DNA from: Octopus sinensis | Taxonomy: Eukaryota | Direction: 5' to 3' | DNA: 64,000 nucleotides | NCBI RefSeq assembly: GCF_006345805.1 | Contig: NC_043019.1 | Location: 13,887,360-13,951,359, forward strand | Part shown: piece by piece, positions 5,939 through 49,430 of the stretch | How positions within the stretch are numbered: the first letter of the stretch is position 1 | Layout: each line of letters opens with the position of its first letter | Made by a program: the position numbers and the translations under genes | The notes under the pieces: model-generated | Database searches by the model: none | What the model was told of the DNA's origin: nothing | The model's input: only the letters and a program-made list of their open reading frames with translations

Positions 5939-6064
5939 GTTTCCTTCCATCCTTCCTGTTCTGGAAACTGAGTTCGTCGCTGAGAAAATAATTGAGGCTG
6001 TTTTGTGCAACCAGGAAGTTCTCTATGTTCCACGCATCATTTATTTCATTTCGGCCGTAAAAGG
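5939..6064 (+). CDS. Penultimate coding exon of an SDR16C-type short-chain dehydrogenase/reductase (RDH10/SDR16C5-like retinol dehydrogenase)
   Basis: Acceptor ttttccag|G and donor GG|gtaagt, phase 2-2, 126 nt. Encodes (R)FPSILPVLETEFVAEKIIEAVLCNQEVLYVPRIIYFISAVKG, matching the recognisable SDR16C C-terminal block (RFP.LLP.L.PE.VA.KI..AV..NQ..L..PR). Upstream exons were not found in the window. Confidence 0.9.
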
Positions 6065-6285
6065 GTAAGTTTTTCATTTTTTGTTTTCTATTCCCGACTG
6101 AATTATTGCAGTTATTTTTGTTGTTTAATCCCCAGATCAGCTCCTGATCAAATAGATTTCAACCGTGGCCATCTTGTCTGTTCGCGCCCAGCGTATCTCG
6201 GTCTAGAGATTCTATATGTTCCCTTTTCTATAAAAAAAAAGCAGTAGACTGTAATTTGAAGAAGGTTTGCTTGTTTCTTCTAGAG

Positions 6286-6512: not shown

Positions 6513-7511
6513 CCGTAAATCCTTGAGTATAACCCGCATTTCCCCCCAAAATTTAAAGGTCAAAATCCTTAGTGCGTACTATATACGAGGTTAAAAATGA
6601 AAATTATTTTCTAAGCAATGTTCGAATCTTTATTTGCTGTCCGGCAATGTTTATTAAGACGCATTTTGTGATGTTGGGCGCGAAAATACCTTAAGCTAAG
6701 CCTGAAAGCGATGAAGTCATAAAAGAATCATCCATAACTTGTAGTAAGCAACATTTATTAAACATTATTACGGTTATTTCTTTATTTTCTACAAACAAAA
6801 TACACAAAAAAGCTACACGTTTGCATTATGCTTTATATACAATAATAATAAAGGACGTTACCATATACATTTTTACAAACCAAGGATGTTATATAGACCT
6901 CCTTGACTCAAGTTAGAGAAGGGGCGCGTATTATACACAAGGTTTAGGTTTTTCAGAGGTACAGCCCCCTAAAAATCCCCAGCGTATACACATTTGCATT
7001 ATGTTATATATACAATAATAATTAAGGACGTTACCATATACATTTTTACAAACCAAGGATGTTATATAGACCTCCTTGACTCAAGTTAGAGAAGGGGCGC
7101 GTATTATACACAAGGTTTAGGTTTTTCAGAGGTACAGCCCCCTAAAAATCCCCAGCGTATACACATTTGCATTATGTTATATATCCAATAATAATTAAGG
7201 ACGTTACCGTATACAGTTTTACAAACCAAGGACGTTATATAGACCTCCTTGACTCAAGTTAGAGAAGGGGCGCGTATTATACATAAGGTTTAGGTTTTTC
7301 AGAGGTACAGCCCCCTAAAAATCCCCAGCGTATACACATTTGCATTATGTTATATATACAATAATAATTAAGGACGTTACCGTATACAGTTTTACAAACC
7401 AAGGACGTTATATAGACCTCCTTGACTCAAGTTAGAGAAGGGGCGCGTATTATACACAAGGTTTAGGTTTTTCAGAGGTACAGCCCCCTAAAAATCCTCT
7501 GCGTATTATAC
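6513..7511. mobile_element. Pogo/Tigger-like non-autonomous DNA transposon with internal 4x173-bp tandem array
   Basis: Begins TA|CCGTAAATCCTTGAGTATAA and ends in a truncated GCGTATTATACT. Repeat landmark agttagagaa at 6911, 7084, 7257 and 7430. Confidence 0.6.
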
Positions 7512-10215: not shown

Positions 10216-10483
10216 AATTATTCCCGTGAAGTGTTGGTCGTTGCTACTGAAGTTCACCGGGAGCTCACATTTGATGGACGAATTTCGTGGTCGATCGCTG
10301 GAGAAAAAGAAATCGATGCACGTCTCAGCAAGAGTATCGGTTCCGCCCTCACCTTCACCTGCACCCTCATCACTATTACCAATGTTATCATCAATAAAAC
10401 TAAACAACAACAGCAGCAACAACGAAGACTTATACGAAGTTACGAAATCAGTTAAAATGTCTGACACAGTTGTAGGCAACTAA
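10216..10483 (+). CDS. Terminal coding exon of the SDR16C-like gene
   Basis: Acceptor tctcttttcag|A completes the GG+A Gly codon from the previous exon (phase match). Encodes [26 protein letters not shown] (typical SDR16C ending) plus an extension to TAA at 10481-10483. Confidence 0.85.
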
Positions 10484-10867: not shown

Positions 10868-11859
10868 TGTGTGTTGTGTTGATTGAACAGCGGACATTCT
10901 CCTAAGAATTGGAGAAGGAGACTGATAAAAAATAAATTATCCAACAAAACAACAAGCAAAAAAAACCCAAAAAAAAACCAAACAAACACAAAAGACATGA
11001 TGGACGTTTCCTCCTAAATGAACGTCTTCGTATTAGGGCAGAAAAAAAAAGATAAAAACTCTTGTTTTTTGCTTTACAGATATTTAACTTACGTTTCAAA
11101 GATGGAGAAGCAACAGGTTAATTTTAAAGTCATTTTATGCCAAAAATAGGGCCCAGCATCTGCTAAGTCAATAGATATGATGATAATGAACGATGACAAC
11201 AACAACAACAACAATAATAATGATAATAATGATTTCAAGTTTTGGCACAAAACCAGCAATTTTAATGGGCCAGTGTTAGTCGATACATCGACCTTTCTAT
11301 GTAATTGGTACTTTCATCTAATCGATTCCGAAACGATGAAATGGCAAAAGCCACTACGACCAATAGCGACATTAATATTAATTTCTTATATCGGTGCAAG
11401 GCATGGAATTTGAGGAAGGGTCTAGTCGATTGTATCGACCTTAGTTCTCAAATGTGTGTGTGGAAACTGGGTCATGAACGACGTGTTTCTGTGTTGTTAC
11501 GCTTCATCAGTTACAGACACCGAGCAAGTTGTTCATAGCTCATTAAGAATTGTTCTCATATTTAAATAACAAATAATAAATTTGCTCATGTGTGCAAAGC
11601 TTTGTCAAGCTGGAAGTAATTAATCAACACATTAAGTAATGATAATTTTAATCATCGTTGTTTAGTGTGCGTCTAATGAATAAATAATGATGATAATAAT
11701 TATAATAAACGCACGTGTACAGACACGCAAACATACTAACACAAAGATCTAAGGAGGTGTACCATGCTCTTCCCAGGTTCGAGTCCCCAAAGATCGCCGA
11801 GACTTTTTTTACACAGATATTAGTAAAGTGTGCCTGAGTGGAGGTGACACGAGACCAGC

Positions 11860-14110: not shown

Positions 14111-15058
14111 ATATATATATAATAAATACGACTTCGGTTACAAATAAGATATATTTGTTCCCAAAGTGTTCCAGACAATATTCGCATTGATTATGACTAA
14201 TTGCGAACTATTTGTGGCTGCAACGCAATTCCGCAGAGTGAAAGAGTAACCGTAAAAAACATGAAAGTCTTGATATGCGATAGAAAGCAAATATGCACGC
14301 TACTACCACGTAGCAAGTCCTCCATTACAGAACGTTTCGTTTCAAGAAAGGCTTCTCTCATCAGGCGGTGTAAACTGACGATTGCTCTGTTCAAGGCAGA
14401 GGCCTGGTGTGCTGAATAGTAAATGCAACAGTAACGCAAACACTTTTACATCAGGTTTCGCAAGTTCCTAGGCGCATACATAACATAGTTATTAGACATG
14501 TATGTGTCTTATAACAAGGTACATCGCAATAGTTTGAGGGAGATTTGAAGTGCTGTTTTATACCAGCCTAAGTGGTTGGGAAGAGTGTAAGATACGTTAA
14601 GCTAAAGAGGTACGTGAACGAAGTATGGCCGTAGCTAAGGGTTAACACACGAAAAAGATGTCAGTACCAGAGACTTACATAATAAAACTATGCCAGGTCT
14701 TAGAGGGTTCCGAATTGGAACCATGCCAGAGCTTGAAGATAAATTTGGAACTAAGATTCCTTTCTAACAAACGCAGGGATGCATGATTATAAAATTTTTT
14801 TTTTCTCTCTCCATATTATCATTGCTAATAAAGATAAAACTTACACATGGAAAAGATTCAGCCATTCGTCATTTAACATATTAAAAGGTGACTTACAAAC
14901 ACATTTCCTCTCAACTGTTTTTATCTCTTCCTTTCATATTGTATCATATATTTCACATATACTTTCGTTTTTCGTTTTTTCTTTTTTCATTTTGCAAGTT
15001 TCAACGTGTGCTTGAATGCGTGTGTGTTTTATATTGCATATATGTATGCATGTATATA

Positions 15059-18030: not shown

Positions 18031-19210
18031 TAATATATATATATATATATATAGGCGGTATCTCGTAGATGCCCTAAGTTATGATTTTAGTAATAATGAT
18101 TACCTTTGAAGGTTTTTATTTCCATGCTGGCCACCCGATAAGATCGTTATTCAACTTAAATTAACGATCTTATCCTTACATGTATATATATATATGTATG
18201 TATATGTCTGTATTGTGTGTTATCATATGTATATATGTATGTGTGGTACATTGCGTGTGTGTATGTGTGTTGTGTGCTTGGATATGCATACGCACACATA
18301 TATGTATTTATGCGCACACATGTATGCATATATATAAGCATACATGCATGCATACATACATAACACACACACACACACACATAAAAATACATACACACGT
18401 ATATATAAACACACGCACGTATATAAACACACACATATATACACAGACAACTGAATATATACATAGATACATTCACGTGTACATATATTTATACATCTAC
18501 ATACCGGCATACCTACGCACATACAAACACATATACACACACACATACACCTACTTACTTGCCTTTTTTTACAGAGAATTTCTTTCAAGACTTGAAGGGG
18601 AAAGTGTCAGCCGACAGACACAATGCATGAAAGACGATGCTTTAATTAACTTGTATTGTGACAAAGAGAAGGGGAACCGTGTAACGTGTGTGGATCTCTC
18701 GAAATTGGTGTCGTCTGGTCGTTCAGACGAGCGATCCCACAAAGGAACGACTATTCATCCGGTGTTTATATTTCCCTCCTTCTTTCTTAATAGCGTTTTT
18801 ATAATAAGTAAATGAATGAATCAATGAATAAATAGATAGATAAACGGGTGCCGGGTATTAATGAAGGCATTGCGAAAACATGATAGCGGGGAAAATGAAG
18901 GAGAGAGACAGAGACAGAGAGAGAGAGAATTAGGTAGAATTATGAGAGAGGAGGGGGTTTGTGTGACATAGAGAGAGATTCTTATATAAATACTTCCGTC
19001 TAACCTAATTCAATAACAAAAAATAGAAATAGAATAAAATTAAATAAAAAATAAATCAGCCGAAAATAGAAAAGAGGGTGATTATAATGATGATGATGAC
19101 GATGGTGATGATACAAGAAAGTTATTTAATACCCCCACAGTAGTCTCCCTTGAAATATTTTTTACCTTATACGTAAAGCAGACTCGATTGAAAAGCCGAA
19201 TGCGCTATAA

Positions 19211-19988
19211 TTTCTTTACTACCCACAAGGGGCTAAACACAGAGAGGACAAACAAGGACATAGGTATTAAGTCGATTACATCTACCACAGTGCGTAACTG
19301 GTACTTAATTTATTGACCCTGAAAGGATGAAAGGCAAAGTCAACCTCGGCGGAATTTGAACTCAGAACGTAGCGGCAGACGAAATACCTATTTGTTTACT
19401 ACTCACAAGGGGCTATACACAGAGGGGGACAAACAAGGACAGACAAACGGATTAAGTCGATTAAATCGACCCCAGTGCGTAACTGGTACTTAATCTATCG
19501 ACCCCGAAAGAATGAAAGGCAAAGTCGACCTCGGCGGAATTTGAACTCAGAACGTAAAAGTAGACGAAATACCTATTTCTTTACTACCCACAAGGGGCTA
19601 AACACAGAGGGGACAAACAAGGACAGACAAACGGATTAAGTCGATTAAATCGACCCCAGTGCGTAACTGGTACTTAATCTATCGACCCCGAAAAAATGAA
19701 AGGCAAAGTCGACCTCGGCGGAATTTGAACTCAGAACGTAAAAGTAGACGAAATACCTATTTCTTTACTACCCACAAGGGGCTAAACACAGAGGGGACAA
19801 ACAAGGACAGACAAAGGGATTAAGTCTATTACATCGACCCCAGTGCGTAACTGGTACTTAATTTATCGACCCCGAAAGGATGAAAGGCAAAGTTGACCTC
19901 GACGGAATTTGAACTCAGAAGGTAAAGACAGACGAAATACCACTAATCATTTCGCCTGGCGTGCTAACGTTTCTGCCAGTTCGCCGCC
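19211..19988 (-). repeat. Head-to-tail tetramer (~185-bp unit) of a Meta-domain-like tRNA SINE
   Basis: Units start near 19211, 19390, 19575 and 19759. One complete head (ggcgaactggcagaaacgttagcac) lies at the 19988 end. Confidence 0.85.
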
Positions 19989-21059: not shown

Positions 21060-21387
21060 CGTTTTTGCTGCTTGCACAGCTTTTGTTTCCTCTCGAAAGA
21101 GCTGTTCTTCACTCCTGCTCCAGAGCGTCGGCTGCGGGGTCACTCTGAAAAGCTCTATCTGCAACGATTTCATCTCAATCGAAGGAGAGGGGCTTTCTCC
21201 GTCCGGGTTGCGGATCCGTGGAATAAGCTGCCGGACGAGATAGTGAAGATGCCGACGACCGCTCTTGACCAGAAATGGCTTGAACTCTTTACATGAACAC
21301 CACCCTGTACATAACTCCATGTCCCCCTACATGGCCTTGCTTTTTGCTTTTTGAGCCAAAAAATTAACTTAACTTAACTTAACTTAA
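21060..21387 (+). mobile_element. 3' end of CR1-clade LINE
   Basis: LRGHSEKLYLQRFHLNRRRGAFSVRVADPWNKLP matches the CR1 ORF2 C-terminus (RGH..KL...R..FFS.RV...WN.LP). Short 3'UTR and (AACTT)n tail at 21366-21386. Confidence 0.85.
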
Positions 21388-21636: not shown

Positions 21637-22571
21637 CACACACACACACACGTGTGTGTACGTATGTCTCTGTGTCAGTATATATATGCATATATACAAA
21701 TATAAAGAAATAAAACCTTTTTCTTCGCATTTAAAATTTAGCTTGCATTCAAATTTGAAACAGTTAGCAATTGAAATTTCAAAAGATCCATCTGGAAAAT
21801 TATGGGTTAATTCCTAAGCCTAAAAACCGTAATTTAATTTTGTTGTATTTCGGGTGGGTCATTATGCCAATATAAAAGACACGCACTGGTTATATTTCAC
21901 TTCCTTACTTTACTTGGTCAATTCTTAATCATTGAACGAATTAACTAATCGATTTTTTTTTTATCAATATTCCGGTCAATCAATCAAAGCCTGACGGAAA
22001 TCTGCAGTAGAGAAAGGATATAATTGATAGCGTCGCGAATAGCAATTGAAAACCAGACTGATTGATTGATTTATTGACCGAACAATCGATTAGTTAGTTG
22101 GTTAAAGTGTTATGGCTGTGTGGTAAGTAGCTTTGCTTACCAGCCACATGGTTCCAGGTTCAGTCCCACTGCATGGCACTTTGGGCAAGTGTCTTCTACT
22201 ATAGCTTCGAGCCGACGAAAGCCTCATAAGTGGGTTTGGTAGACGGAAACTGACAGCAGAAGAGTATCGTATATATATATATATATTCCCCATATACATT
22301 TACATAAATAATAATAACGAAGTGAAATAGAACCAGTGCGTGTGTTTATTATTGGCACAATGACCCTCCCAAAATGCAGCAAAATCTGTTTTAATACCCG
22401 AGTTGACATCAAGAATCTTGTAAAGGAAATACAAAACAGTAACATAATGGTAATTTTGCATTTATAATTAAATTACATTATACTTATTAGTAGAAGAGTC
22501 AAAAATTTGAAACTAATATTATTTACATTATTTACATTTGACGGATATTTGTCCTCATCTTGTTTGTTGTT

Positions 22572-22617
22572 AACACAACGTTTCGGCTGATATACCCTCC
22601 AGCCTTCATCAGGTGTC
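22572..22617 (-). ncRNA. Minimal type I hammerhead ribozyme (Penelope-type)
   Basis: gacac-CUGAUGA-A-GGCUG(gaggguauau)CAGCC-GAAA-CG-UU-guguu: intact core, 5-bp stem II, stem I GACAC/GUGUU, palindromic ACGU stem III. Confidence 0.75.
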
Positions 22618-22668
22618 TTGGGGAAATTTCAAAACTGGGTTCTCATTCCTATGATATTTTTCGATGTA

Positions 22669-22716
<48 letters not shown>

Positions 22717-22785
22717 GAAGTCACTGTCTAGTTAAGATCGTGGGCTACTAACCCTAAGATTCCGAGTTCGATTCCAGGCAGTGAA

Positions 22786-22853
<68 letters not shown>

Positions 22854-22902
22854 TGATGATGATGATGATGATGATGATGATAATGATGATGATAATAATA
22901 AT

Positions 22903-22955
<53 letters not shown>

Positions 22956-23004
22956 CACTGAAAAATACCTTAGGAATGAGAACCCAGTTTCGAAATTTCC
23001 CCAA

Positions 23005-23050
23005 GACACCTGATGAAGGCTGGAGGGTATATCAGCTGAAACGTTATGTT
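23005..23050 (+). ncRNA. Second, slightly degenerate hammerhead copy in the opposite arm
   Basis: gacac-CUGAUGA-A-GGCUG...CAGCU-GAAACGUU-auguu. Two substitutions relative to the minus-strand copy. Confidence 0.65.
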
Positions 23051-23621
23051 AACAACAAAGATGAGGACAAATATCCGTCGAATATAAATAATGTAAATAA
23101 TTCCTCATCTCTTAAATATAGAACTGTAATATTATTTAATTATAAAAATATAGTAGGGTGTTTTAAAGCATAGAATAGCTACGTGGGTCCATCCGTGAAC
23201 CACTGGAAGGCCAGCTGTAAGGTGGTGCAGTATTTTCCCCCTTTAACTCCTGTGGCTTAGTGGTTAGGGTGTTGGAATCATGATCGTAAGATTGTGGTTT
23301 CGATTCCTGGACAGGACGATGTTTTGTATTCTTGAGCAAAACACTTCATTTCTCCACAGCTGCAAATACGCTTGAAATTCGGAAAAAAAAAAAGTTAAGG
23401 CTGAATAATCACGGTTGGAACGGCTTTCATCCGTAAGGAGTCTGTGAAACCAGAACCTGGCCTTGGGCTAAACAACATCAACAGTAAGAAGAAAAGTTGA
23501 AGGCTGTTGCAAATGCCTCCTCCTCCTCCACCTCCTCCTCCTCCTCCTCCTCCTCCTCCTCCTCCTCATCATCATCATCAATAATAGCAACAGAAAGAAC
23601 AAGTTCTTGGCTTTGACTCAC

Positions 23622-24095: not shown

Positions 24096-24126
24096 CTGTC
24101 ATTAGAATAATTGATGTAACTGAACG

Positions 24127-24136
24127 ACTACTACTG

Positions 24137-24199
<63 letters not shown>

Positions 24200-24205
24200 G
24201 TGTTG

Positions 24206-24237
<32 letters not shown>

Positions 24238-24379
24238 GCTGATGCGTCTGCTCCTCCTCCTCCTCCTCCTACTACTACTACTGCTGCTGCTACTACTACT
24301 ACTACTACTACTACTAGCACTACTACTACTACTACTACTACTACTAGCACTACTACTACTACTACTACTACTGCTACTG

Positions 24380-24420
<41 letters not shown>

Positions 24421-24482
24421 GCTACTGCTACTACTACTGCTACTACTACTACTACAACTCCTACTACTACTACTAATACTAA

Positions 24483-24514
<32 letters not shown>

Positions 24515-24538
24515 GTGGTGTTGCTGCTGCTGCTGCTG

Positions 24539-24573
<35 letters not shown>

Positions 24574-24622
24574 GCTGCTGGTGGTTTGCTGCTACTACTA
24601 CTACTACTACTACTACTACTAG

Positions 24623-24663
<41 letters not shown>

Positions 24664-24664
24664 G

Positions 24665-24699
<35 letters not shown>

Positions 24700-24738
24700 A
24701 TGCTGCTACTGGTGGTGGTGTTGCTGCTGCTGCTGCTG

Positions 24739-24772
<34 letters not shown>

Positions 24773-24893
24773 TGTTGGTGCTGCTGCTGCTATAAGTACT
24801 ACATCTTGCAACACTGACCTCACAGTCACTATCATCATAGCCACCACCACTATCACCACCACCACCACCACAACTACCACCACCACCACCACC
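24127..24893. repeat. ~770-bp compound (CTA/CTG/CCA)n trinucleotide array
   Basis: Direct reading; fills most of the intron between exons 5 and 6 of the Cys-rich gene. Confidence 0.95.
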
Positions 24894-24957
24894 ATGTGGC
24901 TGGGAAGCAAGCTTCTTACCGCACACCCCACGCCTGCGCCTAACCACATAATCTCGC

Positions 24958-25249
24958 CTGTACCCCAGTTGTGAACCACTGGTCCAGAAACACTGGCGTT
25001 GACAGACATACTCATGTCGGCACCATCCGGGACATTTGGTGACCCTGATCGAGGCGCTTACTGACTGGCATTGTTGACAGTTATTGTCAAAGAAGAAACA
25101 CAGGCACGAGTTGCATGACCAGTCGGCGCAGCCCAGGGGCGAAGTACCGGGGCAAAAGTGTGACGGTCGACACAGTCGTGTTTTTCTGCACACTGTGACC
25201 GAAACATCACATGCAAAACCAATCAGGTGAATATTTGTGTTTGTTTGAC
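24958..25249 (-). CDS. Exon 5: 14-cysteine domain of putative secreted protein
   Basis: Acceptor tttgtccacccag|GT; the only fully open minus-strand frame is QTNTNIHLIGFACDVSVTVCRKTRLCRPSHFCPGTSPLGCADWSCNSCLCFFFDNNCQQCQSVSASIRVTKCPGWCRHEYVCQRQCFWTSGSQLGY(R). GC-richer unique island. Donor is AG|gcgaga (GC-AG) or GG|gtacag 6 nt earlier, both phase 2. Confidence 0.7.
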
Positions 25250-25704
25250 CTGGGTGGACAAATGTGTTGATGCTTGAGAGAATGTATTTATGTACGTGGT
25301 GGCAATTAGAAATTAGTTCTGGTCTTTTGTTGAATTCTGGTCTTTTGTCCCTGGTTCGGAGATGATGAAATATATTTCTCATCATTATAGAGGCCAATGA
25401 AATTTGAAAAGATCGGTAGCATATGTGAGGAAAACGTTATAGAAAGGTATATAGATGGATTTTTTTTTTTTTTTTTTTTGTACTTGTTTCAGTCATTTGA
25501 CTGCGGCCATGCTGGAGCACCGCCTTTAGAGTGGTGAAAGAGTACAGCAGGGATCACCACCATCCCCTGCCGGAGCCTCGTGGAGCTTTTTAGGTGTTTT
25601 CGCTCAATAAACACACACAACGCCCGGTCTGGGAATCGAAACCGCGATCCTCCGACCGCAAGTCCGCTGCCCTACCCACTGGGCCATTGCGCCTCCATGG
25701 ACGC

Positions 25705-39009: not shown

Positions 39010-39378
39010 GAGATATGAGCGGTGGTGGAACGATAGAGCGGTTGTATACTGTCAACTTAACGTGACAGTCCTGTAAAGGGAATCACACCACCGCTATGTA
39101 GCCCTAGGAAGCATCGACGCTTCCCGTCGGCTTTGACACATTTCCTGTACCCTTATATTTGCAAAGGGGAGACAAGCACACGCAACAAGGTAGATCGTTA
39201 GCCACTACACACGTTTTTTTCTCTCCTTGTTTCTCTCCATGTTTTTTCTGTGTCCCTTTCTGTAGAAGAGCGTAGGCTCGAAACGTAAAAGACTTTTTCT
39301 ATTTCTGAGCGTTATACTAATACATCTGTTTGTTTTCTACACCACCTGTCTTCGTCTTTTGTTTTTTTCGTAAACTCT

Positions 39379-39383
<5 letters not shown>
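39010..39383 (+). mobile_element. Penelope-derived element: structured RNA module followed by hammerhead-like motif
   Basis: 39252-39293 reads cuuu-CUGUAGA-A-GAGC(guag)GCUC-GAAACGUA-aaag (A6U variant). The same 3' part recurs at 29491-29606 and 29758-29876. Flanked by (TA)n. Confidence 0.55.
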
Positions 39384-39418
<35 letters not shown>

Positions 39419-44657: not shown

Positions 44658-45048
44658 CTAGCAGTATCGCCCGGCGTTGCTCAGGTTTGTTTCGACCCTT
44701 TAGAATTGGAATTTCTTAAAAGTAAAAATTTTGCATTATGTAGCTTGTTATTCTCTTTAAGTGAATATTTGTCTGCTTGAAATACACCGAAAAATGGCGA
44801 CACAGCAGTCAAAAAATCGTTAAAAAATAGGGATTTTCATAGAAAAAAAACACCTTTTTGATGTAAATATTTTTTGGTGTTAACATGGTCCGATTTGAAT
44901 TTTTTCTCCTACGGAAGGAAGAGCAAGCCTTCTTCTATCATACTCTCAATTTTGGTCAACTTGCGCCGCAGGATCTCGGAAGAGATAGTGTTAGTTGAAG
45001 GCTACCAAACCTGCCATACACAGACAACTTCAGCATTATATATGTAGA
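44658..45048 (-). mobile_element. Non-autonomous Helitron
   Basis: Minus strand starts TCTACATATATAATG and ends with a GC-rich hairpin CCTGAGCAACGCCGGG followed by CTAG|T. Confidence 0.7.
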
Positions 45049-45660
45049 GGATTAGTGGAGGAAAAGTGCGACAACGTTCTTGAGGAGACCTTGAGTGTCG
45101 AAGAAAATCAGCTAGTCGCTCTTTTCCGAAGAACTTTCAGGCTGGGACCGATGGATAGTGACGAGACGGTCCTGCATGCACTCGTCCAGTGTCCGAACAT
45201 TGCTGTTCTGTGGGTTTACGTTGAACGTCCGCTGTCGCGTGTAGGACGGATCCGACTGTCAACTGAATCCATCGTGAAGATCGCCCCACCGCCTTCCTTT
45301 AACCAGGAAGGAAAGCCTGTTTTTATATGCATGGTGGCCATGGCGAAAGAGATTGTATGGTGGACGAGATTGAAGGGGCTTTTTGTCCAATCCCTGATGA
45401 ACTTCTGCAAGTTTCACTTGAAAAAGAAAATAAGGGTAGAGAGGGAAGTGATGTCTTCTGGTCAGTTTGCTGAAGGGTGGATGAAAGTGGCGAGAATGGT
45501 GCGAGTGAACGGGCTTGCCCTGAGCATACGACTGTAGTTGCAAAAAAAAAAGAAAGAAAAAAGGCACCTGCCCCCAAAGTCAGGATACTCATGGGTTTTT
45601 TTATGCGATTTTCCATGAGCAGCCCTCGGACGTCTTCTCCCGATTGAGGATTACACATTA
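45049..45660 (+). mobile_element. 3' fragment of L1/Tx1-type LINE ORF2
   Basis: ETVLHALVQCP (C-terminal zinc-knuckle ET..H....CP) and AKEIVWWTR (AK..IW..R) motifs; stop at 45537. Confidence 0.75.
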
Positions 45661-49054: not shown

Positions 49055-49430
49055 AATGTGACCGCGTGTGTACCGTTGGCGATTTTTTTCCCCTATCTTC
49101 CCTTCTCTGGATATTTCCTTTCCTATGTTACGACGAAGAGCTCCGCTCGAAACGTTACACCCTCCTTCTTTCCCTTTTCTGAGCGTCCAATAATACTATA
49201 TTTGTTCCACGTCCTCGCGTTGTTGTTTTTTTGGTGCTTCTGGTTGATTAATATATATGGAGGGCTGGCCGTGATCTAGTAATCTCAAGATAATCAGCCG
49301 AAATTACTACGATGATCCGGTTCTTGACTGAAGACTGAGGGTCGAATCGTCCTCCTGTCCATGTTTATTGTATCGTCTTCTAAGAGTTATACGTTCTTGT
49401 CCATGTTGTATTTTTCTACATACCGTAATA
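49051..49430 (+). mobile_element. Two adjacent degenerate hammerhead-type short elements in a (TA)n tract
   Basis: 49126-49160 reads ACGACGA-A-GAGC(ucc)GCUC-GAAACGUU. From 49259 a 5'-truncated GGA-G-GGCUG...CAGCC-GAAA motif follows. Confidence 0.4.

Follow-up and report, generated by a model that had tools for sequence, protein, structure and literature searches.

A head-to-head double copy of a hammerhead repeat in an octopus genome window: a likely non-autonomous Penelope-type insertion with a likely tRNA-derived head

Insertions of Penelope-like elements (PLEs) display a characteristic structure. Passages of the published accounts (PMC8557442, PMC3846280) describe an inverted, 5'-truncated copy, a head-to-head junction, a tail of 30-40 bp at one end, and a target site duplication (TSD) of 8-10 bp or none. 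The tail reaches from one RT start site to the other, and the endonuclease cuts with a preference for ATT (sections of PMC11167929). According to the same sections, hammerhead mutants of an anole PLE still inserted in vitro, and cleavage needed protein (PMC11167929). Minimal hammerhead ribozymes of PLEs (min-HHRs) occur in S. mansoni as opposite-strand pairs 100-700 bp apart; the lone motif is uncleaved and dimers cleave at a low level (part of PMC4209133). Retrozymes have in turn been viewed as PLE derivatives in excerpts of three sources (bioRxiv 10.64898/2026.07.22.740005; PMC7229834; PMC7761336).

For octopus, parts of the 2026 O. vulgaris repeat annotation assign 11.6% to SINEs, which in recently active families are for the most part unclassified, and 6.83% to Penelope-like DNA; its supplement makes no mention of hammerheads (PMC13282606). 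In the giant squid, 235 hammerheads have been counted, in the passages concerned without a link to a repeat (PMC6962438). Fold-back Penelope ends with tails, short non-autonomous PLEs, and the tRNA-headed, hammerhead-bearing, SINE-like Sm-alpha are each known separately. A tRNA-headed element that combines a PLE tail with a minimal hammerhead was not found as a published description in a search that lay outside Repbase, Dfam, subscription journals, and bioRxiv supplements.

The window analysed here is the whole 64,000-nt stretch of DNA, repeat-rich animal sequence with 38% G+C whose repeats resemble those of octopus genomes. Within it, the element and its flanks show the following features:

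22514..22525 (+): left copy of a 12-nt direct repeat, a possible TSD; 22518-22525 can equally be taken as the short 3' end of the element
22518..22662 (-): left arm, an inverted body copy that ends at the family's short 3' end (the 23101 equivalent), without tail
22572..22617 (-): minimal hammerhead motif of type I, intact; core from 22612, with cleavage predicted after GUU (22577/22576)
22669..22716 (-): left-arm (AAT)16 linker, (ATT)n as read on the plus strand
22721..22729 (-): final 9 nt of the head repeated in inverted orientation (8/9 match to 22776-22784)
22730..22784 (+): tRNA-like head remnant, from the D-loop onward; B box at 22766-22774, A box absent
22786..22952 (+): right-arm (AAT/GAT)n linker, about 55 units
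22960..23101 (+): right-arm body, high-copy family sequence
23005..23050 (+): minimal hammerhead motif, core 23010-23016, private changes at 23037 and 23046; predicted cut after 23045
23102..23128 (+): optional 27-nt tail, right arm only; long family 3' end at 23128
23127..23138 (+): right copy of the 12-nt direct repeat, its first 2 nt within the tail

The two body arms are inverted relative to each other and share 93.1% identity across 145 nt; neither body nor head has a second copy elsewhere in the 64-kb window. Between the arms, a 68-nt unique centre is enclosed by the (ATT)16 run and the roughly 55 (AAT/GAT) units, and these two runs pair with each other, prolonging the arms inward. In predicted folds, 22518-23128 (611 nt) forms a single long hairpin on both strands (about -296 and -300 kcal/mol). 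The fold-back anatomy anticipated by the original prediction is therefore present, with inverted arms, (AAT)n, and one long hairpin, except that the element ends at 23128 rather than at 23138. The order of head end, (AAT)n, and body is the same in both arms, and the 9-nt stretch at 22721-22729 is likely the place at which the left arm was 5'-truncated and the inversion joined.

Other repeats are found in the vicinity and across the window. Just left of the element lies a separate inverted repeat (21837-21907 and 22315-22385; 71 nt, 86% complementary), which encloses a smaller inverted repeat at about 21930-22100 and a SINE-like copy at 22113-22260. Direct tandem arrays at 19170-19940, 34230-35380, and 6760-7500 consist, by eye, of SINE-like or unique units of about 180-290 nt. 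Two plus-strand remnants, 21080-21290 and 44995-45537, are presumed to resemble the 3' ends of CR1-like and L1/Tx1-like LINE ORFs; Pfam returned no match on either.

Each arm carries a hammerhead motif, and the two are oppositely oriented, as had been predicted; at the level of motifs this claim is confirmed, with the minus-strand core (22612) intact and the plus-strand core (23010) altered. In the left arm the CUGANGA ... GAAA-N-N'-UH core is complete, together with helix I (4-5 bp) and helix II. There, stem I forms 5/5 pairs and stem II forms 6 pairs, one of them G-U. This motif displays the PLE hallmarks throughout: an extra base separating positions 9 and 10.1 (an unpaired A), G10.1-C11.1, a palindromic 15.2-16.2 segment with helix III reduced to the palindrome AACGUU, and a helix I of 4-5 bp. 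In the right arm, stem I has a C-A mismatch adjoining the cut site, and a G-U pair replaces G10.1-C11.1, which closes stem II. A strict descriptor matched once in the window, at the minus-strand motif, and a relaxed descriptor three times (both arms and a site at 39260); neither matched in any of 60 block-wise shuffles. Rfam gave no hammerhead call, with 0 matches at gathering score over the whole window and, at E values up to 10 on 21800-23500, 11 chance matches that included no hammerhead and no tRNA. Monomer folds were not better than those of shuffled sequence (z -0.26 and -0.79), and minimum-free-energy folding of a dimer did not yield the hammerhead dimer.

Further hammerhead-like sequences occur in the window. 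A second repeat family, at 39190-39390 (+), contains a minimal-hammerhead-like motif (core 39260) with one core mismatch and a 4-bp stem II. Its 3' pieces recur at 29491-29617 and 29758-29885, and all three copies enter (TA)n, as in some PLE clades. At 49140-49165 (+), a hairpin followed by GAAACGUU and accompanied by a damaged 5' core was recognised by eye and fails the relaxed scan; it belongs to 200 nt of unique sequence that terminate in (TA)n. Two minus-strand cores, 14370 (14310-14370) and 11516 (11455-11516), failed the stem tests and are possibly decayed motifs of other families.

The body extends well beyond this locus. Words of the element are present in 24 sequencing runs from 11 studies, and 4 of the 24, from four organisms, were aligned on 22930-23250, with the linker region 22930-22963 left out of the family alignment. 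Two insect metatranscriptome runs, X19 and X20 (share 0.22-0.23), were set aside together with X24 (0.15); all three may contain nothing but microsatellite words. Contigs matching the body number 24,889 in X21 (a DNA run), 2,386 in X4, 1,213 in X5, and 309 in X18, where contig depth does not equal copy number. By these sequence matches, the body belongs to a high-copy, dispersed family. Four exact scans for the body pattern in metagenome, viral, and prokaryote genome contigs returned 0 matches, as expected for an animal repeat, and the unique flank beyond 23183 has zero cover in all four aligned runs.

The ribozyme motif, too, is preserved in the family. At 23046, G makes up 95-99% of depth and retains stem I; at 23037, C makes up 65-87% and retains stem II, and the left arm has both letters. 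Variation at N7, a free position of the core, is 2.5-17%. The family majority thus carries an intact hammerhead motif.

Evidence on how the copies end comes from the same alignments. Summed depth drops 22- to 71-fold between bin 23106-23116 and bin 23128-23138. Among the loose ends listed, at least 284 fall behind 23101 in X21 and at least 27, plus 10 at 23100, in X4; behind 23128 there are at least 279, 24, 12, and 3 in X21, X4, X5, and X18, respectively. Among those listed, then, the short end is seen in two of the four runs and the long end in all four. The loose sequences are AT-rich flanks with low agreement, and those of the short end open with a further terminal-repeat unit, so that the short end can be placed only to within 9 nt. 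Two 3' ends, 23101 and 23128, are consequently distinguished in the family, separated by about 27 nt; the left arm uses the first and the right arm the second. Copies stop at two fixed sites in unique sequence, in the manner of PLEs, and the A-rich or simple-repeat tail of LINE type is absent.

We read the locus as a head-to-head double copy of a hammerhead repeat, likely one non-autonomous Penelope-type insertion with a likely tRNA-derived Pol III head, and assign this reading a probability of about 0.7. Both structural marks of a Penelope insertion are found here, namely an inverted 5'-truncated copy joined head to head and a one-sided tail, and the window holds no direct second unit of the retrozyme kind, the arms being inverted. 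By its sequence, the feature behaves as a PLE-mobilised non-autonomous element. The earlier proposal of a Penelope parasite accordingly stands on high copy number, two 3' ends one per arm, and the full set of min-HHR hallmarks. An ORF for a partner PLE (RT plus GIY-YIG) was found neither inside the element nor, by eye, among the ORFs of the window.

The underlying mechanism can be outlined in conditional terms. Pol III would transcribe an intact master comprising head, (AAT)n, body, and tail, and the pLTR-like 3' part of this transcript would be the binding site for the protein of a partner PLE (RT plus GIY-YIG). The protein would then nick AT-rich DNA, with cDNA beginning at two internal sites. 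The far-site cDNA, tail included, would extend back into the D-loop of the head, while the near-site cDNA would halt just within the head's 3' end; joined at their 5' ends, the two truncated cDNAs would give a fold-back with a tail on one side. The hammerhead may have been inherited from the pLTR of the partner, and would cut only as a dimer via the AACGUU palindrome, probably aided by protein. Since hammerhead mutants of the anole PLE still insert, ribozyme processing would not be required. Passive transcription of the locus would produce a hairpin of about 200 bp that could serve as an ADAR substrate, not as a working ribozyme. Transcription, partner, cleavage, and joining step are all things we infer.

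The head contributes a further layer to this reading. Its start falls inside the D-arm, as placed by alignment to a nearby tRNA-like repeat head, where it matches the D-loop. Of four alignments to other tRNA-like heads of the window, this one, with a score of 34, exceeds the best of its 300 shuffles (24), and the remaining three do not exceed theirs. ARAGORN reported 0 tRNA genes in the window, and Rfam likewise placed no tRNA at the head. From the original claim of a tRNA head, the B-box match at 22766-22774 survives, yet the A box is missing, the sequence is cut inside the D-arm, and both programs are negative, so that a tRNA identity is weakly suggested by the sequence. From head to 23160, the plus strand has no T4 run, as a Pol III unit would need. 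Pol III transcription, also part of the original claim, would hence fit the design of the family, with its B box and T4-free strand, but not this copy. With two private changes in its plus-strand hammerhead and a head that lacks an A box, the copy at this locus is likely decayed and dead, probably inert and old. Head-centred palindromes of this type are presumably common in octopus assemblies. A different tRNA-like SINE head, with an A box, occurs at 23252-23352 and 12 other sites (13 window copies by BLAST).

The absent A box also speaks for an alternative that we regard as unlikely, in which the body is the pLTR end of a PLE, either autonomous or short and non-autonomous, present as an ordinary inverted 5'-truncated pair, and the tRNA-like piece was captured at this junction only, through a template switch or a separate insertion. 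Pairs of inverted pLTRs whose min-HHRs point in opposite directions at a distance of 100-700 bp have been reported (passages of PMC4209133), as has unrelated sequence captured between pLTRs (part of PMC3846280). The linkage of head and body is moreover known from this locus alone, the alignment of other copies having left out 22930-22963. Against such a capture, the left arm too has the last 9 nt of the head beside its (AAT)n, which suggests that each cDNA was copied from a template already containing head, linker, and body in one piece; the T4-free plus strand points the same way. With respect to SINEs, the element is a candidate member.

For the flanking direct repeat, a length of 12 nt was reached in 5 of 3000 shuffles, which ignore the AT-rich end of the element itself. 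Eight letters of the left copy lie in the arm and two letters of the right copy in the family tail; because the repeat overlaps both ends of the element, a duplication of anywhere from 2 to 12 nt fits. The 12-bp TSD first proposed is thus present as a direct repeat, but its length as a duplication is ambiguous. Long inverted arms with a flanking direct repeat would also suit a MITE or fold-back DNA transposon with a hammerhead-like motif in its terminal inverted repeats by chance, and other animals are known to have palindromic DNA elements (passages of PMC5625713). We hold this to be very improbable, given asymmetric ends with the 27-nt tail on one side, family copies that stop at two sites, and a motif that satisfies every PLE min-HHR hallmark.

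A regulatory role in a neighbouring gene had also been suggested, with the minus-strand hammerhead cleaving a 3' UTR or read-through RNA. The gene in question is a putative Cys-rich frame of 444 codons on the minus strand (24102-25436), with the element downstream; it contains microsatellites and a SINE remnant (24891-24928). A Cys-rich piece of it gave no Pfam family above cut-off, only three weak below-cut-off matches on a serine run. No homologue appeared in a protein search at near lengths, 0 matches were obtained among 1.84 billion representatives, and the Atlas had no match, all three being sets that may lack the proteins of this animal. The intact minus-strand motif downstream of a minus-strand frame of this length favours such a role, as does the tendency of exon-overlapping Xenopus retrozymes toward 3' UTRs (excerpts of bioRxiv 10.64898/2026.07.22.740005). 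On the other side, the searches gave no Pfam family above cut-off, homologue, or Atlas match for the frame, its sequence includes the SINE remnant and microsatellites, and three poly(A)-signal hexamers (23935, 23810, 23677) precede the element on the minus strand. In the predicted fold, minus-strand RNA would make the antisense arm first, and this arm pairs with the intact motif, which makes cleavage of read-through RNA unlikely. A minimal hammerhead further requires a second sense copy, a single min-HHR being uncleaved in vitro (part of PMC4209133). Nor does the intact motif signal local selection, since it is the default of the family. Host-gene cleavage is therefore held to be highly improbable.

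The nearest plausible gene lies about 12 kb left of the element, where two likely terminal exons are found at 5939-6065 and about 10217-10480 (+). We take them to resemble a short-chain dehydrogenase-like gene; Pfam returned nothing on a 70-aa piece.

The least credible explanation, an assembly mirror or recent DNA-level fold-back of one copy, can draw on the origin of the window from a gapped, repeat-rich draft and on the finding that no listed contig covers the whole of 22930-23250, but the arms end at different family termini and differ by 7 substitutions and one 3-nt indel that are split between them (private changes against the family majority are 4 substitutions and a 3-nt deletion in the right arm and 3 substitutions in the left), the signature of an ageing insertion and not of a mirror.

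Editing of the family RNA was assessed by comparing X5, presumed to be RNA and from organism A, with X4, presumed to be DNA and from organism B, a pair without matched DNA. At a 3% listing threshold, 29 minority-letter positions were obtained; 7 were dropped because the listed letter is the one that most of the family carries. Among those kept, A>G or T>C positions were higher in X5 at P below 0.005 in 4 of 7 cases, against 0 of 15 for the others. The contigs concerned, X5 versus X4, were 30 and 0 at 22995, 47 and 3 at 22996, 21 and 16 at 22998, and 37 and 25 at 23004. Summed over positions, editing-type letters gave 144 contigs against 53 and the remaining ones 168 against 372, these contigs not being independent. 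Relative to the DNA runs of other organisms, the X5 excess of A>G and T>C minority letters is located in 22990-23095. At the level of the family rather than of this locus, the excess hints at A-to-I editing on both strands of the RNA. A species-specific subfamily may account for it as well, the two organisms being different. The ADAR editing envisaged at the outset is accordingly hinted at for the family rather than for the arms of this locus. Hyper-editing was strongest in octopus, where dsRNA-forming loci also made up a very large share, and the passages on editing name a palindromic repeat for frog and none for octopus (PMC5625713). If fold-backs were the norm of the family, they could help explain the heavy repeat editing of octopus.

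A broader proposition can be put forward tentatively, and we consider it possible but doubtful: a very high-copy tRNA-headed SINE that is moved by a Penelope RT-endonuclease rather than by a LINE, and that usually inserts in the form of a self-complementary fold-back. Under this proposition, the near 1:1 ratio of short to long ends (284:279 among those listed) would reflect one of each per insertion, and the genome would be seeded with near-perfect 200-bp hairpins, from which much of the dsRNA edited by ADAR in this animal group would arise. Textbook SINEs use the enzyme of a LINE via a common 3' end. Should the head prove family-wide, a SINE carried by Penelope would extend this borrowing rule beyond LINEs. 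It would also provide a minimal map of the cis needs of the PLE protein, together with thousands of natural junctions at which to probe the two-start-site model.

Comparison with described systems places the locus closest to the inverted pLTRs of EN+ PLEs, as portrayed in parts of Arkhipova 2013 (PMC3846280), Craig 2021 (PMC8557442), and Frangieh 2024 (PMC11167929). The head-to-head inversion, the one-sided tail (27 nt here), the AT-rich target, and a hammerhead near the 3' end are shared; the locus differs in having no RT/GIY-YIG ORF, the end of which is replaced by the tRNA-like head and (AAT)n. Its ribozymes resemble the minimal type I hammerheads of PLEs in sections of Cervera and de la Pena 2014 (PMC4209133) in their core, the 9/10.1 nucleotide, G10.1-C11.1, the palindromic 15.2-16.2, and a 5-bp helix I. 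They differ in a helix II of 5-6 bp (7-8 in S. mansoni), in the cut triplet GUU, and in the presence of the tRNA-like head.

Octopus tRNA-derived SINEs (Ohshima and Okada 1994, a reference of PMC4824008), including OR1 (mentioned in a passage of PMC4824008), are likewise tRNA-derived retroposons of the same animal group, and the body family may be an already-named octopus SINE, or may be entered with a different name in Repbase, Dfam, or the O. vulgaris library. Non-LTR retrozymes (portions of PMC7229834 and bioRxiv 10.64898/2026.07.22.740005), together with the short non-autonomous PLEs MRC1 (PMC8557442) and those of butterflies (PMC6685494), both in part, are similarly non-coding, hammerhead-bearing or pLTR-sharing, and presumably moved by PLE proteins. 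Retrozymes form direct tandem units that give circles, whereas the locus is without a tandem unit and carries a tRNA-like head. In schistosomes, the repeats Sm-alpha and Sj-alpha (excerpts of PMC6765202 and PMC2770079) share the tRNA-derived, apparently Pol III-transcribed and SINE-like character, a hammerhead, and very high copy number. Sm-alpha, however, is arranged in tandem units and its ribozyme has demonstrated cleavage, while the locus described here combines a PLE-minimal motif, an inverted pair, and a PLE tail.
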